Source of the DNA: Chitinophagaceae bacterium
Lineage (GTDB): Bacteria > Bacteroidota > Bacteroidia > Chitinophagales > Chitinophagaceae
DNA length: 64,000 nt
Assembly (NCBI GenBank): GCA_964229195.1
Contig: CAXRAX010000009.1
Location: forward strand, 2,145 to 66,144
Direction of reading: 5' to 3'
Made by a program: the position numbers and the translations under genes. This document shows, piece after piece, positions 1,325 through 27,020 of the stretch; positions within the stretch are counted from its first letter, which is position 1; every line of letters begins with the position of its first letter. The notes beneath the pieces were generated by a model. The model searched no databases and was not told the DNA's origin. It saw nothing but the letters and a program-made list of their open reading frames with translations.

Positions 1325-1330
1325 GAATAT

Positions 1331-1447
1331 TGTCCGCCGTCCGCCGTCGGCCGTCCGTAGTCCGCAGTAGTTGTACGCTATTAGTTTTCAGTTGATCAGC
1401 GGTCAGCGGACAGTGGTCAGCGGACATATTCTGCGGTCAGCGGACAT
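1331..1447. repeat. GC-rich degenerate repeat block built from GTCCGC/GCGGAC units with roughly self-complementary halves
   Basis: The 12-mer GGTCAGCGGACA occurs three times (1401-1412, 1415-1426, 1435-1446). The GTCCGCC-rich half 1331-1367 is roughly complementary to it. The block lies between convergent secA and the K-channel gene. Confidence 0.75.
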
Positions 1448-2250: not shown

Positions 2251-2320
2251 TAGTCCGCCGTCGGCCGACCGCCGTCCGCCCTTGCCAGCCGAAGCCTTGG
2301 CGAAGGCTGGTGACCGCCGT
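2251..2320. repeat. Left arm of the long-range inverted repeat flanking four-helix-bundle gene 1
   Basis: 2280-2320 is the reverse complement of 2796-2836 (40/41 by manual alignment). The arm contains an internal palindrome ccagcc..ggctgg. It also carries GTCCGCCGTCGGCCG (2253-2267), which is shared with 1339-1353. Confidence 0.85.
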
Positions 2321-2341
2321 TAGAAGTTTCAAGTCAGTTAG

Positions 2342-2695
2342 TTAATGAATTGAGGTTTTAAGTTTATAAAGTCTGGCACTCAATTCATGACAGCGGGAAT
2401 ATATTTTCGTAAAGTCACCTTGATCGATAATGCTTCGTTTTTTTGCCAAGTAAATACAAGCTACTACTTCAATATTCGAACGGATGGCTATTCCCAGAAA
2501 ACGTTTGAATTCTGCATTCGATTGCCCTGTAGAGCCCTCTGCGATATTCAACGATACAGAATCAGCCGCACGCTTGATCTGAGAGGTTAAAATAAAGATT
2601 TCTGCCTTTGGAAATTGTTTTGTTACCTCATGAACGGTCATCGACAAATCAACAGCCAACTGCCAAACCTGTAACTTTTCAAATTTGAATTGCAT
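2342..2695 (-). CDS. Four-helix-bundle protein (23S rRNA intervening-sequence protein / Avd-like family)
   Basis: 117 aa. FEKLQVWQLAVDL...QIKRAADSVSLNIAEGS...EFKRFLGIAIRSNIEV is the signature I recognise for the TIGR02436/PF05635-type family. Confidence 0.85.
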   Translation of the reverse strand: MQFKFEKLQVWQLAVDLSMTVHEVTKQFPKAEIFILTSQIKRAADSVSLNIAEGSTGQSNAEFKRFLGIAIRSNIEVVACIYLAKKRSIIDQGDFTKIYSRCHELSARLYKLKTSIH

Positions 2696-2699
2696 CCGC

Positions 2700-2707
2700 C
2701 AAACATA
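2700..2707 (-). promoter_or_regulatory. Candidate -7 box TATGTTTG, 4 nt upstream of the four-helix-bundle ATG
   Basis: The reverse complement of 2700-2707 is TATGTTTG, a perfect TAnnTTTG. A TTG (reverse complement of CAA 2728-2730) lies 20 nt upstream as a possible -33 element. Confidence 0.4.
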
Positions 2708-2753
2708 TTTTCCTATCCGAGCAGAAGCAACACACGAATCGATTACCTGTTAG

Positions 2754-2850
2754 TGGCAGCGGTCGGCGGACTGCGGACGGTGGACAACTCTGCGGACGGC
2801 GGTCACCAACCTTCGCCAAGGCTTCGGCTGGCAAGGTCGGTCACCGGACT
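2754..2850. repeat. Right arm of the inverted repeat flanking four-helix-bundle gene 1, preceded by GCGGAC-type units
   Basis: The core 2796-2836 is complementary to 2280-2320. GGTCGGCGGAC at 2761-2771 is a one-mismatch variant of the 12-mer in block 1331-1447. The arm ends 2 nt before the amidohydrolase stop codon. Confidence 0.85.
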
Positions 2851-2852
2851 AC

Positions 2853-4210: not shown

Positions 4211-7200
4211 TTAATGATTTTCTTCCGCATCGATGACCAGCAATCCGTGGCTGTGTCCATGGTCGCTGCAGGTATGCATCAGTTGATAAGAGGGTTGAGC
4301 CGGTATCGTGGGCATGCCACTTCTTTTCTCGCCGTTCATTTTCCGCACCAGACGCAAGCGCTCTGCATCCACCTCTTTTTGCATCTGCTCGTCCTTGGCC
4401 CGGTCGTAATAAACCGTTCCATCCACGATGGTGTAAAGGGACTTGGCATAAATGCTCAGCGGGTGATCGCTCCACAGCACCACATCCGCATCCTGTCCGG
4501 GCTTCAGGCTGCCGACCTTTTCCTCAACATGCAACATTATAGCCGGGTTTAAGGTCACCATCTTCAAGGCCTCCTCTTCCGTTACGCCACCATACTTCAC
4601 GATCTTGGCGGCTTCCTGGTTGAGGCGACGTGCCATTTCAGCATCATCACTGTTAATGGCAACGGTGAGTCCCACTTTCTGCATGATGGCGGCATTATAC
4701 GGAATGGCATCCTCCACTTCCATCTTGTAAGCCCACCAGTCAGAGAAAGTAGATACATAAGATCCGTGCTTCAGCATTTTATCCGCCACTTTATATCCTT
4801 CCAGAATATGTGTGAACGTATTGACCGTGTAGCCCATCTGTTCAGCCACTTTCATGGCGCCGTTGATCTCGCTTTGCACGTAAGAGTGACAAGTGATGAA
4901 ACGCTTCTTCTCGAGGATCTCCACGAGTGCATCCAGTTCCAGGTCGCGGCGAGGCGCCGTACCCGTAAATCCTTTCTTGCCTTTGTTCGCTTCATATTCC
5001 TTCCATGCCCGCTGATAATCTTTGGCACGGGTAAAGGCATCCACCAATACTTGCTCTACGCCCATGCGCGTATCGGGATAGCGATTGTTTCCGAGGGGGG
5101 CGGAGGAACGTTTTACGTTCTCACCGAGGGCGAACTTGATCTGTCCGGGCCAGCCGCGGAATTTCAAATCCTCATCATTGCCACCCCAGCGAAGCTTGAG
5201 CAGTTGGGTTTGTCCGCCAATGACATTCGCCGAACCATGCAGGATATGTGAGGAAGTGACGCCGCCACTGAGCTGGCGGTAAATATTCACGTCGTCCGGA
5301 TTCAGGTTATCTCCGATGCGTACTTCGGAGGTTACGGATTGTCCGCCTTCATTGATCGAAGCCGCCGCAATATGCGAGTGCTCATCGATGATACCGGCGG
5401 TTACATGTTTTCCGGTTCCATCGATTACTCGGGCGGTGGGGTCTGAAAGATTCTTCCCTACTGCGGCGATTTTGCCGTTTTTAATAAGTACGTCGGATTC
5501 TTTTAGTATGCCTTCTTTTTCGTTGGTCCACACCGTTGCGTTCTTTATGAGTATGGTCTCCGATTGCGGACGCTCATTTTCTTTCCATCCGAAAGGAAGC
5601 AAGGGATAGGTAACCGAACCCAGTACGGGCGGATCTTTTTTCTTGACGCTGTCGGCTTTGAATTCACCGGCCTTGACCAGCACGGCGGTCCAGCTCAGCG
5701 GATTACCCAATGAATCCGTTCCGGTTCCGTTCCAGCTGCTGCCGTTGACGAGTCCGCTAAGACGAGTAGCCGTCACCGGCAAGGGCTCCGTCCCGGAGGT
5801 CATCATACCTCTTCCGCCAAAACCGCCCATCGGACGACGGCTCGTATCAGCGCCCGGGGCTCCTCCCCCGCGAACGCGCTTGGCCGCAGGAGCAAAGCTT
5901 AATTTGATTTGCTTGCCATCAACTGTAAGTTTTGATTGCAGCGTATCCTTCGCAAATAGCGAAGTTGCTCCGCCGGCTTTTACCTCTAGGGTGTATTGTT
6001 CGGTGCCGCCCGGACCGTTTACCGATAACGTGTATGTGCCATTAATGGCGCCGGCATCTTCCTTGATGGTGTATTTGATGCCCTGCACCCAGTTCTGGAG
6101 CAGGGTTGATTTTTCCTGGAACATCGGCCCGCTCATCACCAAGAAATTCGCCAGTTTACCCGCTTCCAAACTGCCGATCATATCGGCTACGCCCAGTGCC
6201 TTTGCCGGATTCAGTGTCAGTGCCTCCATGGCAGCTTTTTCGGAGAGTCCGTACTCCATCGACTTTTTCAAAGCGGAAGCGAATTGAGAAACGGATTTCA
6301 GATCGGCCGTAGTGAGACAGAAAGGAATACCTGCTTTCTCGAAAGAGGCAGCTAAGGTGGGGGCCAGCTCCCAATGTTTCATATCGCCCAAAGACACGAA
6401 ACGGGCATCATTGGGATCTTCGACATCTTGTGCCAAGGGAAAATTGAGGGGGAGAATAAAAGTAGCGTTGGTGGATTTCATCTCCCGGATGCGCTGGTAC
6501 TCGTTTTGTCCGGCTTTGATGATGTATTGCACCCCGAATTCATCGCCGATGCGATCGGCCCGCAGGTCGTTCCATTTATCGCCGGCCTCAAACACTTGAG
6601 GCAGCGAACGATTCTCATTGAAAGCTTTCAGGCTGAGGTTGGTGCCTTCCGCCGCGGGCTTGTTCTTATACCAATCGGCATCGAGATAGGTCTGACGCAA
6701 CAACGAAATATTACCCATCATGGAGCTGGGATAACTCTGCGTGGAAGTTCCTTTATTGAAAGAATAGTGAGCAGAAGCTTTTTCGCGTAAAATGACGAGG
6801 TTTTCTTTTTCCGAGGCGAGGGTGACAAGTGTACCGGTGCCACGGGCAATACCATCTCGCACGTGTGTAAGCACAGTGCCGAATCCGGCCTCGCGCATGG
6901 ATTTAGCCTGAGATTCGTTGACCGAGAAGGAGGCGTAGGCGTTTACTTCGGGACGAATGGCTTGGTTCCATCCAAAGGGACCTTTGGTCGCCGTTTCCAA
7001 TTGTGCGGGCTGGGCAAAATTAAATCCGCCGCGACCGGTATTCTGTTGCGCGGGCATGCCATAATCGGCATATAGGTCTACGAATGATGGGTAAATGAAT
7101 TTATTGGTGCAATCGATCTCCACGGCGCCGACGGGCACGGGAAGTCCGGCACCCACGGCCACGATCTTTCCATCGCGCACCACGAGGGTGGCATTTTGGA

Positions 7201-25782: not shown

Positions 25783-26493
25783 ATGTATTTGCTTGGCATA
25801 AGGCCTGTGCATAACGATTTGTGGCATGGGCAAGGGCCGTTGGCGGATGTATACTTGGGGATGATGGAAATGGAAAAACTGGGGTTGGGGGCCGATGGTT
25901 TGGCTTCTACCCCGCAATTATTGGAGCGGATCCTGGGCACCTCGAAGGGAGCTCAGAAATTATGGGAGTTCGTGGAGGGCGATCTGGGCCGGTTGGCCAC
26001 GATGGACCCGGAGGAGCTCATGCAGGTGCGGGGGTTGGGAGGAGAGCGGGCGGGGAGGTTATTGGCGGCCTGGGAGTTGGGGCGCCGGTTATCAACTTTT
26101 CGGGCGGGGCAGGTGCGGACCCCGCTGCAGTCTTCCTCGGAGGCTGCCCGGTACTTGCAGGCGCAGATCGGGTATTTGGATCACGAGGTGTTTTGTGTGC
26201 TGTATTTGAATCGGGCACTTCGGCTGATCCGGTTGGAGCGGGTGAGTCAGGGCGGCATTACGGGTACGGTGGCCGATCCGCGGATCATTTTTCGAAGGGC
26301 TTTATCGCTTCGGGCGGTGAGTTTGATCTTGGGTCACAATCACCCCTCGGGGGCCTTGCATCCCAGTGACGCCGACCGCGAACTCACCGAGAAGATCCGC
26401 CGCGCGGCGGAGTATTTTGATATGACCGTACACGATCATTTGATCGTGAGTGGGGAGGGGTATTACAGTTTTGCGGACGAGGGAATACTATAG
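25783..26493 (+). CDS. radC: RadC-family JAB/MPN domain protein
   Basis: JAMM motif LGHNHPSGALHPSDADRELT and HhH-like LMQVRGLGGERAGRLLAAWELGRR. The start is uncertain (alternative Met at 25861). Confidence 0.85.
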   Translation: MYLLGIRPVHNDLWHGQGPLADVYLGMMEMEKLGLGADGLASTPQLLERILGTSKGAQKLWEFVEGDLGRLATMDPEELMQVRGLGGERAGRLLAAWELGRRLSTFRAGQVRTPLQSSSEAARYLQAQIGYLDHEVFCVLYLNRALRLIRLERVSQGGITGTVADPRIIFRRALSLRAVSLILGHNHPSGALHPSDADRELTEKIRRAAEYFDMTVHDHLIVSGEGYYSFADEGIL

Positions 26494-26535
26494 TTTGAAT
26501 AGTTTGAGAAGTTTGAAGAGTTTAAAAGTTAAAAA
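26494..26535. repeat. Left arm of the inverted repeat flanking four-helix-bundle gene 2 (degenerate GTTTGARRA tandem units)
   Basis: agtttgaat agtttgagaa gtttgaagag tttaaaagtt, starting immediately after the radC TAG. 26501-26515 is perfectly complementary to 26941-26955. Confidence 0.8.
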
Positions 26536-26543
26536 GCGATCAT

Positions 26544-26933
26544 ATGGGCACGATCAGAGAGTTGGAGGAATTGAAAGTCTGGCAGAAAGCAAGGACATTG
26601 AATAAAAGAGTTTTTGAATTGACTGGATTACCGGTTTTCAAATATGAGTTTTCGTTACGAGAGCAGATGCGCCGTTCGGCGGGCTCCGTGATGGATAATA
26701 TTGCGGAGGGATTTGGCCGGATGGGCAATCGAGAGTTTATCAATTTTTTGCTGATTGCCCATGGGTCATTGATGGAGGTTCGCTCACAGCTAAACCGCTG
26801 CCATGACCAAGCCTTCATTTCACCAGTCACACACGATGAAATAATGCCGCTAACCCGAGAAATTGGACGAATGATCTACAGCATGATACAATACCTCAAA
26901 AAATCAGAAAAAACCGGTCAGCGATTTCGCTAA
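26544..26933 (+). CDS. Four-helix-bundle protein (23S rRNA intervening-sequence protein / Avd-like family), second copy
   Basis: 129 aa. LKVWQKARTL...QMRRSAGSVMDNIAEG...EFINFLLIAHGSLMEV is the same signature as 2342-2695. Confidence 0.85.
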   Translation: MGTIRELEELKVWQKARTLNKRVFELTGLPVFKYEFSLREQMRRSAGSVMDNIAEGFGRMGNREFINFLLIAHGSLMEVRSQLNRCHDQAFISPVTHDEIMPLTREIGRMIYSMIQYLKKSEKTGQRFR

Positions 26934-26987
26934 AAACTCCCAAACTTCTCAAACTCCCAAACTCTCAAACTCCCAAACTCTCAAACT
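26934..26987. repeat. Right arm of the inverted repeat flanking four-helix-bundle gene 2
   Basis: It begins right after the TAA stop codon. It contains the exact 16-nt tandem AAACTCCCAAACTCTC twice (26951-26966, 26967-26982), and CAAACTTCTCAAACT is complementary to the left arm. Confidence 0.8.
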
Positions 26988-27020
26988 GGCGCAGGCGCAG
27001 CCTGCGCCTACGCCTGCGCG
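26988..27020. terminator. GC-rich multi-register palindrome between convergent genes (possible bidirectional terminator or REP-like element)
   Basis: GCGCAGGCG 26989-26997 pairs with CGCCTGCGC 27011-27019. An alternative inner pairing is GCGCAG/CTGCGC. There is no T-run, and it overlaps the last codons of the DUF3467 gene. Confidence 0.4.

Follow-up and report, generated by a model that had tools for sequence, protein, structure and literature searches.

The analyzed stretch (below, the window) comprises 64,000 nt of contig CAXRAX010000009.1 of a Chitinophagaceae bacterium. It contains two genes of the four-helix-bundle (4HB) family PF05635/TIGR02436, which is also encoded in intervening sequences (IVSs) of 23S rRNA, and each of the two genes is enclosed by complementary arms built of short tandem repeats. 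The first gene (copy 1, together with its arms cassette 1) is flanked by an amidohydrolase gene, whose 3' end faces it, and by an ion-transport (K-channel-type) gene, a placement given in an initial annotation of this DNA and confirmed by profile matches of the neighbours. All three genes are on the minus strand.

Cassette 1 and its protein

The locus consists of the following features (TRF, Tandem Repeats Finder).

2251-2279, minus strand: outer downstream (3') arm, about four heptamers, GGCGGAC on the coding strand and GTCCGCC on the plus strand (TRF 2253-2280, period 7, 4.0 copies)
2280-2320, minus strand: 41-nt core of the downstream arm, partly palindromic itself, complementary to 2796-2836 at 40/41 positions
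2342-2695, minus strand: 4HB gene, 117 aa, in the hairpin loop (PF05635 and TIGR02436 matches)
2700-2707, minus strand: TATGTTTG (read directly), matching the -7 promoter box of Bacteroidota, its end 4 nt from the ATG
2757-2795, minus strand: inner heptamer array on the upstream (5') side, with GTCCNCN units on the coding strand (TRF 2759-2785, period 7/14)
2796-2851, minus strand: upstream (5') arm, comprised of the 41-nt core 2796-2836 and two outer heptamers, abutting the amidohydrolase stop codon

The near-perfect 41-nt inverted repeat described initially is readily seen: the reverse complement of 2280-2320 (ccttgccagccgaagccttggcgaaggctggtgaccgccgt), read directly, matches 2796-2836 at all positions but one. 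The repeat search extends this pair to 2269-2320/2796-2847 (52 nt, 90% complementary, 475 nt apart), which no other inverted repeat within 1.5 kb in the window approaches in length or quality, and a 27-nt part of the core is found at these two sites only, with up to three mismatches allowed (0 expected by chance). The outer arm ends are tagtcc (2251-2256) and ggacta (2846-2851), as had been described, and the outer arms differ in length by 14 nt, exactly two heptamer units. The RNA 2245-2856 (612 nt) was folded in both orientations, as had been proposed, and the arms form the closing stem on either strand (z = -8.5 for the sense strand, in both the minimum-free-energy and the centroid structures; z = -10.9 for the plus strand). 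In the sense RNA, the sole mismatch of the 41-nt core becomes a G.U wobble.

The initial annotation missed the heptamer make-up of the arms, which are inverted arrays of tandem heptamers with the unit GTCCGCC (TRF, period 7). In particular, the pattern GTCCGCCGTC is enriched in the outer downstream arm region, with 15 matches compared to 5.8 expected, and the inner array (GCGGACN on the plus strand, 2759-2785) is able to pair alternatively with 2253-2272, according to the inverted-repeat pairs. Apart from the arrays of cassette 1, of the second copy and of an ORF-less hairpin at 1329-1445 (both below), the rows of period 7-9 in the window are minimal arrays of about two units, together with GCG-rich and Pro/Gly-type runs (TRF). 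The cassette fits tightly between its neighbours, the amidohydrolase stop codon (2853-2855) touching the upstream arm and the K-channel-type gene starting 27 nt past the downstream arm, and 2342-2695 is the only family-matching open reading frame (ORF) between the arms, in agreement with the initial description. A consensus scan, whose model does not cover Bacteroidota promoters, found no terminator-like or sigma-70 promoter site at the arms.

Cassette 1 shares with 23S rRNA IVSs the terminal inverted repeats enclosing an ORF and the tandem heptamers adjoining this ORF, but lies outside 23S rRNA, where IVSs are located in helix 9, 25 or 45; no Rfam family, rRNA included, matched anywhere in the window. 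The suggestion that the stem-plus-ORF layout of a 23S rRNA IVS is present here at a non-rRNA site is thereby borne out. The arms also agree with the class of long period-7 simple-sequence repeats (STRR/LSSR), being intergenic and head-to-tail, with a 5-11-nt unit and variable copy number.

The copy 1 protein scores far above the curated cut-offs of PF05635 (E = 5e-34, 117 bits, cut-off 33.8) and TIGR02436 (E = 6e-31, 107 bits, cut-off 24), and its AlphaFold2 model (four helices, pLDDT 95.9) has the fold of the solved homologues XCC0516 (2GSC, TM 0.97) and BT_0352 (2RLD, TM 0.83), both with five chains (pentamers). The family itself is large, with 13,396 clusters at 50% identity (E <= 1e-3). 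The predicted model also resembles Avd of diversity-generating retroelements (DGRs), with TM 0.77-0.79 to 4DWL and 8UBB (0.79 to 4DWL), consistent with the shared fold pointed out initially. Still, identity with DGR Avd was rejected: the sequence matches are weak (phrog_3206, E = 1.5e-6 for copy 2; PF22296, E = 8e-4) and far below the curated cut-offs of the Avd models (NF033474, 17 bits vs 80; PF22296, 20 bits vs 40), while neither a reverse transcriptase among the neighbouring ORFs nor a template/variable repeat pair nearby was found. Phage origin was rejected as well, with one relative among 2.9 million viral contigs and only the weak PHROG match to Avd, and so was membership in a defence system, with no PADLOC defence family at E <= 0.01 for either copy.

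For the comparisons below, loci from other genomes, mostly metagenome contigs, are denoted by L-numbers, L161-L164 being close orthologues of cassette 1. The ratio dN/dS is 0.03-0.09 between orthologues (0.04 for copy 1 and L161), and hence the protein is functional and under purifying selection.

Co-variation of the arms and the family-wide layout

The second copy noticed in the initial annotation, with the same architecture and unrelated arms, was confirmed.

26490-26523, plus strand: upstream array of AGTTTGAN units (TRF period 9, 3.8 copies), starting on the RadC stop codon TAG
26544-26933, plus strand: 4HB gene (copy 2), 129 aa, PF05635, 32% identity to copy 1
26934-26987, plus strand: downstream array of CAAACTCN units, 6.6 copies (TRF period 8/16, score 99)

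The copy 2 ORF matches PF05635 with E = 2e-32 (112 bits) and TIGR02436 with 107 bits. Its arms consist of 8-9-nt tandem units that are unrelated to the arms of cassette 1, and the downstream array is complementary to the upstream one, so that an enclosing stem is observed in the RNA fold (z = -2.8). Directly after the downstream array there is a GC-rich hexamer-repeat hairpin (26989-27019, GCGCAGGCGCAG...CTACGCCTGCGC), which overlaps the 3' end of the convergent DUF3467 gene and may be a terminator.

The copy 2 locus (RadC / 4HB / DUF3467) is syntenic in relatives, with the 4HB identity ranging from 99% down to 54%, and its units change in both arms together. The window has AGTTTGAG upstream with CTCAAACT downstream, L177-L181 have AGTTTGGG(C) with (G)CCCAAACT, and L182-L189 have GTTCAGC with GCTGAAC. 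In L181, the 8- and 9-nt variants follow in mirrored order and yield a perfect 37-bp duplex, and the number of units differs among strains with identical 4HB proteins.

Comparison of own and foreign arms yields a similar picture. The own downstream arm is the best partner of the upstream arm in 25 of 90 cassettes (1 expected), and is among the top 5% in 49 of them. Judging from these sequences, the two arms co-evolve, staying complementary while their sequence turns over fast. Moreover, the 5-mer similarity of arms rises with protein identity (Spearman 0.50), decaying much faster than the protein, which indicates that the gene and the arms are inherited together as one unit. The RNAalifold analysis of arm constructs from 10 orthologues (12 pairs, 9 with compensatory changes) was discarded as unreliable, since array copy-number variation wrecks the alignment, and was replaced by the direct reading of units and the own-versus-foreign arm test.

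For the 41-nt core of cassette 1, orthologous cassettes in the same amidohydrolase / 4HB / K-channel order were found in metagenome contigs and aligned. L163 has heptamer arms without the 41-nt segment, L162 has the segment in the upstream arm only, and the window has it in both arms; L161, otherwise near-identical to the window, ends before its downstream arm, and only the upstream copy is visible. The segment as a dispersed repeat was rejected, no other copies being found in the window or in 164 loci apart from the upstream arms of L161 and L162. Being absent or one-armed in orthologues, it is a lineage-specific insert, now in both arms. As far as the aligned sequences tell, the ancestral arms are heptamer arrays, and the core is a late addition rather than the essence of the element. 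Other GC-rich small palindromes were observed in array arms, TGCCTGCCGGCAGGCAGG in L176 (~1055-1075) and CCTGCCTGCCGCAGGCAGG in L011 (~5885-5910), and the arms seem to attract or tolerate palindromic inserts.

The same alignment contains two mosaics. In the L163 cassette (480-1160), the 5' half resembles the window and the 3' half resembles L162, a 1-nt deletion truncating the ORF, while L161 matches the window exactly in the arm and in the first third of the ORF and has about 13 differences, mostly synonymous, clustered in the 3' two-thirds of the ORF. Both mosaics indicate recombination within the cassette. In the closest genome found (L001, 6878-10979), the amidohydrolase is 93% identical, the K-channel gene is inverted relative to the window, and the junction holds 3.3 kb with two further genes (669 and 361 aa) absent from the window. 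With the junction of this nearest genome rearranged, no clean empty site could be defined for cassette 1. In the window, inverted GTCCGCC arrays (1396-1426 and 2253-2280) stand on both sides of the K-channel gene, an arrangement that suggests an array-mediated inversion.

The initial annotation proposed that bracketing inverted repeats be sought around other genes of the family, their absence being evidence against an IVS-like cassette. Relatives of copy 1 (45-72% identity) were collected from 80 metagenome loci, and 68 of these genes were testable; 250 nt upstream of each gene was aligned with the reverse complement of 250 nt downstream, with the score threshold of at least 30. The idea withstood this attempt at refutation, as 66% of the 68 genes score at least 30 and 40% at least 40 (median 34.5), compared to 3.8% of 131 and 2.2% of 1098 control ORFs from the same loci scoring at least 30. 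Nearly all arms are tandem arrays. Arrays with period 7 or 8 (or 14, 16, 21) were found in 59/83 upstream and 68/85 downstream flanks of 4HB genes (71% and 80%), and in 50/654 upstream and 70/654 downstream control flanks (8-11%). RNAduplex energies of 200-nt flanks (median -79.6 vs -66.7 kcal/mol in controls, p = 4e-6) were not relied on, since any pair of 200-mers gives large energies and the test is therefore a poor discriminator.

The median array is 31 nt long, that is, about four units, and arrays often end 0-30 nt from the ATG. The units vary by lineage (GTCCATA, GTCCACA, AAGTCCGG, GACCATT, GTTCACG and others), with constant orientation, the GTCC-type strand being upstream on the coding strand and its complement downstream. 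The AGTCC core is kept in 38 of 46 relatives from one protein subfamily and changes with protein divergence. On this sequence evidence, the layout is typical of the 4HB family in Bacteroidota and Cyanobacteria.

Cassettes occupy the spacers between genes, in many cases within operons, and their arms abut stop codons of the neighbouring genes. Of 68 4HB genes, 57 have the orientation of the gene upstream (84%, baseline 66%, Fisher p = 0.002), the co-orientation with the downstream gene being not significant (74% vs 65%). The -7 box that had been assigned to the cassette itself is present at 2700-2707 and partly conserved in the close orthologues L162-L164, and TATGTTTG is a possible local promoter for a leaderless copy 1 mRNA. 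As a family feature, the own promoter was rejected, as TAnnTTTG lies between the arm and the ATG in only 4 of 80 cassettes. The upstream co-orientation and the rarity of the box favour read-through transcription over the autonomy assumed in the initial annotation, and read-through from the upstream gene would place both arms on one RNA.

Several observations on unusual arrays were made along with this survey. Very long arrays include GCCAATTA x50 (L146, 1103-1598), a 16-mer x16 (L028, 1368-1622), and ATCAACT x24 downstream of the 4HB gene in L134. A few unrelated ORFs are also bracketed by inverted heptamer or octamer arrays, often with solo hairpins on each side, as listed here with their lengths.

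L142, 899-2278: array-bracketed ORF, 459 aa
L103, 651-1142: array-bracketed ORF, 163 aa
L146, 6008-6673: array-bracketed ORF, 221 aa
L133, 3894-4217: array-bracketed ORF, 107 aa
L135, 7822-8169: array-bracketed ORF, 115 aa

In addition, L144 (449-862) contains a 129-aa ORF with the GxxExxY motif (LGKGFLEIVY), flanked by the TAATCTGTGAATCTGTGG palindrome.

Solo arrays, cyanobacterial cassettes and a 23S rRNA IVS

One hairpin of the window has no ORF.

1329-1445, no strand assigned: ORF-less hairpin of (GTCCGCC)5 and (CAGCGGW)n around a ~30-nt loop, flanked by the stop codons of SecA and the K channel

Its RNA fold has the energy of -50.2 kcal/mol (z = -4.5), and it shares the 15-mer GTCCGCCGTCGGCCG with 2253-2267 of the cassette 1 arm. 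It is probably a solo or decayed element of the cassette kind. Its right array (CAGCGGA/T) resembles the downstream arrays of L162 and L163.

A spacer between two amidohydrolase genes is about 50 nt long in most of the 80 relatives and holds a copy-2-type cassette in 6 of 80. L005 has an internally deleted cassette with both arms kept, and L041 has a degenerate arm pair beside an intact cassette; both look like decayed cassettes. L032 and L078 have arrays only, and empty sites in the close relatives L001, L004 and L007 have no hairpin. Many cassettes are syntenic across species, while others, 73-79% identical, are found in unrelated contexts.

In cyanobacterial plasmids, 4HB genes are located inside operons, 35-45 nt from their neighbours, at the sites cas10-cmr3, cas6-cas4, between two ribonucleotide reductase genes, and among conjugation genes. 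The flanking heptamer arrays are GTCAGGA, GGGAGTA/TCCCTAC and AGGTGAC/TGTCACC; L171 (Pseudanabaena) has about 15 AGCTAAA units upstream (1072-1191) and about 10 AGCCAAA units downstream (1552-1671). In the L169, L170 and L171 plasmids, the 4HB genes are wedged between cas10/cmr3 and cas6/cas4. An 'association' of 23S_rRNA_IVP with CRISPR adaptation modules has been reported (PMC10910872, PMC3936711), and it may be a by-product of cassettes lodging in the spacers of cas operons.

The same anatomy is observed in rRNA. An unannotated 4HB match in L190 (plasmid AZO_p2 of the alphaproteobacterium Azospirillum lipoferum) lies inside a large-subunit (LSU) rRNA gene (Rfam RF02541, 811 bits) and is thus a true 23S IVS, and its ORF is located between 36-nt arms that are inverted heptamer arrays (CAGAGGA / TCCGTCC-type). 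In the Coxiella IVS, the S23p ATG is closely preceded by three tandem heptamers (GACAGAT x3) that differ in number between strains, and the first of them is where RNase III cuts the 28-bp stem, mid-stem (PMC4990558). Together, the Azospirillum anatomy and the Coxiella heptamers suggest that rRNA IVSs and intergenic cassettes are the same kind of object. 23S rRNA IVSs with the S23p/PF05635 ORF (Coxiella burnetii, Leptospira, Azospirillum) are about 430-600 nt long and, like the cassettes, have the same family in the loop, ORF-adjoining tandem heptamers, and the repeat number varying between strains. The differences are that these IVSs lie in the rRNA gene, whereas the window element lies between protein-coding genes; that RNase III excision has been demonstrated for rRNA IVSs, while for the window element it is proposed by analogy; and that the Coxiella IVS ORF seems to be decaying, unlike the ORFs of the window type, which are under strong purifying selection.

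Possible mechanism, alternatives and significance

We propose, with about even confidence, that the element is an IVS-type cassette, that is, a functional 4HB gene in a hairpin loop, whose arms pair in the co-transcript into an RNase III substrate. The cassette would be transcribed together with its neighbours, first the amidohydrolase, then the 4HB gene, and then the K channel; the arms would pair in the RNA into a duplex of about 50 bp; and RNase III may cut this duplex, by analogy with the homologous stems of 23S rRNA IVSs. Such cleavage would release the 4HB message with the flanking RNAs left intact, which would explain the tolerance of cassettes between genes, in operons, and even in rRNA. 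Arms made of tandem repeats would provide many pairing registers and rapid length change by slippage. A relevant precedent is the 5'-untranslated region (5'-UTR) of hmw1A in H. influenzae, where the transcribed heptamer array is one arm of a hairpin processed by RNase III, the cleavage affects expression, and RNase III is needed for the change in repeat number (PMC12721329). The hmw1A hairpin differs in being confined to the 5'-UTR, with a G-rich segment as the second arm, no gene in the loop, and no 4HB protein.

Several observations weigh against the IVS-type cassette. In a sample of Chitinophagaceae DNA (0.91 Mb) selected independently of 4HB genes, 9 of 80 arrays are located beside 4HB genes and 71 are not; hence the arrays are more widespread than the gene, and the stem is not gene-specific. 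The initial annotation had considered inverted repeats without the ORF in related genomes as evidence against its idea, and in part this is what was found (hairpin 1329-1445, L032, L078, and the 71 of 80 arrays); such free arrays may be remnants, independent elements or targets. A clear inverted repeat is missing from about a third of cassettes, and the arrays in L171 are direct, not inverted. In copy 1, a good -7 box precedes the ATG by 4 nt, and a transcript starting there would be without the 5' arm. The comparison of G.U and A.C mismatches had been expected to support RNA-level selection; in 63 cassettes, the arm mismatches have no sense-RNA G.U excess (97 G.U vs 136 A.C), and thus the complementarity may be maintained in the DNA, or else in both strands. 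Finally, the model is silent on what the 4HB protein does.

Among the alternatives, a DNA-level element and protein-binding sites are not mutually exclusive with the IVS-type cassette. In the former case, which we consider unlikely, the inverted arrays would serve a cassette that moves or recombines, as its ends or homology arms. Such a cassette would be propagated through recombination of similar arrays or would enter array hairpins already in place, and its arms would stay complementary owing to templated repair from one arm to the other (quasi-palindrome correction) rather than selection on RNA. The mismatch pattern of the arms agrees with this explanation, as do the 41-nt insert in zero, one or both arms of orthologues, suggesting arm-to-arm copying, the mosaic orthologues L163 and L161, and the K-channel gene inverted relative to L001 between inverted GTCCGCC arrays. 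The amidohydrolase spacer is patchily occupied in the 80 relatives (6 filled, 1 internally deleted, 2 with solo arrays, and the rest empty), similar cassettes occur in unrelated contexts, and solo hairpins could serve as empty or decayed sites; however, the empty sites in L001, L004 and L007 show no hairpin. Arms located 400-500 nt apart are poor cruciform extrusion substrates, which is also unfavourable for this explanation.

Further points weigh against the DNA-level element, and the initial suggestion of a mobile or insertable module is not supported. No target-site duplication, flanking direct repeats or conserved termini were found at the cassettes examined, no transposase or recombinase is present among the ORFs in or beside the cassettes, and many cassettes are of old date and keep strict synteny across species even where protein identity falls to 54%. 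The arm sequences differ between copies of one genome, as would not be expected if a single transposase recognised them, and thus the unrelated arms of copies 1 and 2, without duplication or transposase, set the cassettes apart from transposons and miniature transposable elements with inverted repeats (MITEs). With MITEs and repetitive extragenic palindromes or bacterial interspersed mosaic elements (REP/BIME), the cassettes have in common small size, intergenic location, inverted termini, patchy distribution among relatives, and the ability to promote rearrangements. They differ from these elements in having termini that are not conserved between copies of one genome, no target-site duplication, arms that are tandem arrays and not unique terminal repeats, and a conserved gene under selection.

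The second alternative, doubtful in our view, is that the 4HB pentamer recognises its own mRNA or DNA through about 4-5 phased heptamers, and possibly other arrays too, for autoregulation or for formation of a ribonucleoprotein, like the RNA-contacting Avd pentamer, the inverted arrangement being secondary. Tandem arrays are indeed more universal than the inverted arrangement (71-80% vs 66%, with direct arrays in L171), they often end close to the ATG, and their median of about four units may be compared with the five chains of 2GSC and 2RLD; the predicted fold matches Avd in the DGR ribonucleoprotein structure 8UBB. The persistence of unit cores within a protein subfamily (AGTCC, 38/46) and their change with protein divergence would be expected of binding sites, but are equally explained by co-inheritance, and the units differ greatly among orthologues with 54-99% identical proteins, so that fast co-evolution of specificity would be needed. 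Heptamer arrays before start codons are abundant in phyla rich in 4HB proteins and have no known binder (PMC4679880, PMC4692102, 10.1101/309039). Binding as such leaves the complementarity of the two arms unexplained.

Finally, an ordinary small gene between two terminator-like or chance palindromes is hardly credible: intergenic hairpins are common, and the solo hairpin between the convergent SecA and K-channel genes stands where a terminator is expected, but the scan found no terminator-like site at the arms, the 52-nt arms pair with each other over 475 nt and not locally, and the layout, with co-varying arms, is found in 66% of the family and in 2-4% of controls.

The arms also belong with known heptamer arrays, such as the cyanobacterial STRR, the Xanthomonas GGGAATC (70-75 convergent pairs per genome), and TAACTGA of Beggiatoaceae, Cyanobacteria and Bacteroidetes (PMC4692102, PMC4679880, 10.1101/309039). 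Like the cassette arms, these have period 7 and 3-10 copies, are intergenic, near ORF ends or start codons, and hypervariable in copy number, sometimes forming convergent pairs capable of stem-loops. They have been described as free-standing, whereas here the arrays bracket PF05635 genes and co-vary. The papers on heptamer arrays call their function unknown and do not mention the PF05635 family (PMC4692102, PMC4679880, 10.1101/309039), and in the searchable literature we found no paper making a general link between the 4HB family and heptamer arrays, the Coxiella remark being a single case. As for Avd, the 4HB fold is shared and the solved relatives of the cassette protein are pentameric, but the DGR context (reverse transcriptase, template/variable repeats) was not found near the cassettes.

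What is new here is an IVS-type element outside rRNA and a pattern that generalises across the family. We suggest, as a tentative possibility, that PF05635 genes with inverted arrays constitute a widespread, undescribed class of self-insulating cassettes with rRNA IVSs as its rRNA-borne members, and that solo hairpins as decay products, together with a heptamer-reading pentamer, explain a large share of the intergenic heptamers of Cyanobacteria, Bacteroidota, Xanthomonas and Beggiatoaceae. A practical caveat concerns the CRISPR-adaptation 'association' of the 4HB family, which may simply reflect cassettes wedged in cas operons (PMC10910872, PMC3936711). Among the periodic intergenic repeats of prokaryotes, tandem heptamers are the most abundant, with their function unexplained (10.1101/309039, PMC4692102, PMC4679880). 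If the suggestion is true, they would be building blocks of co-varying stems around one gene family, and 23S rRNA IVSs would be just one of the places occupied by a much larger cassette family, most of whose members lie between ordinary genes. The role of the very large family of 'four helix bundle proteins', which have no known function, would become a testable question, and three loose ends, the origin of IVSs, the heptamer repeats and the function of 4HB proteins, would be tied together in a testable way.

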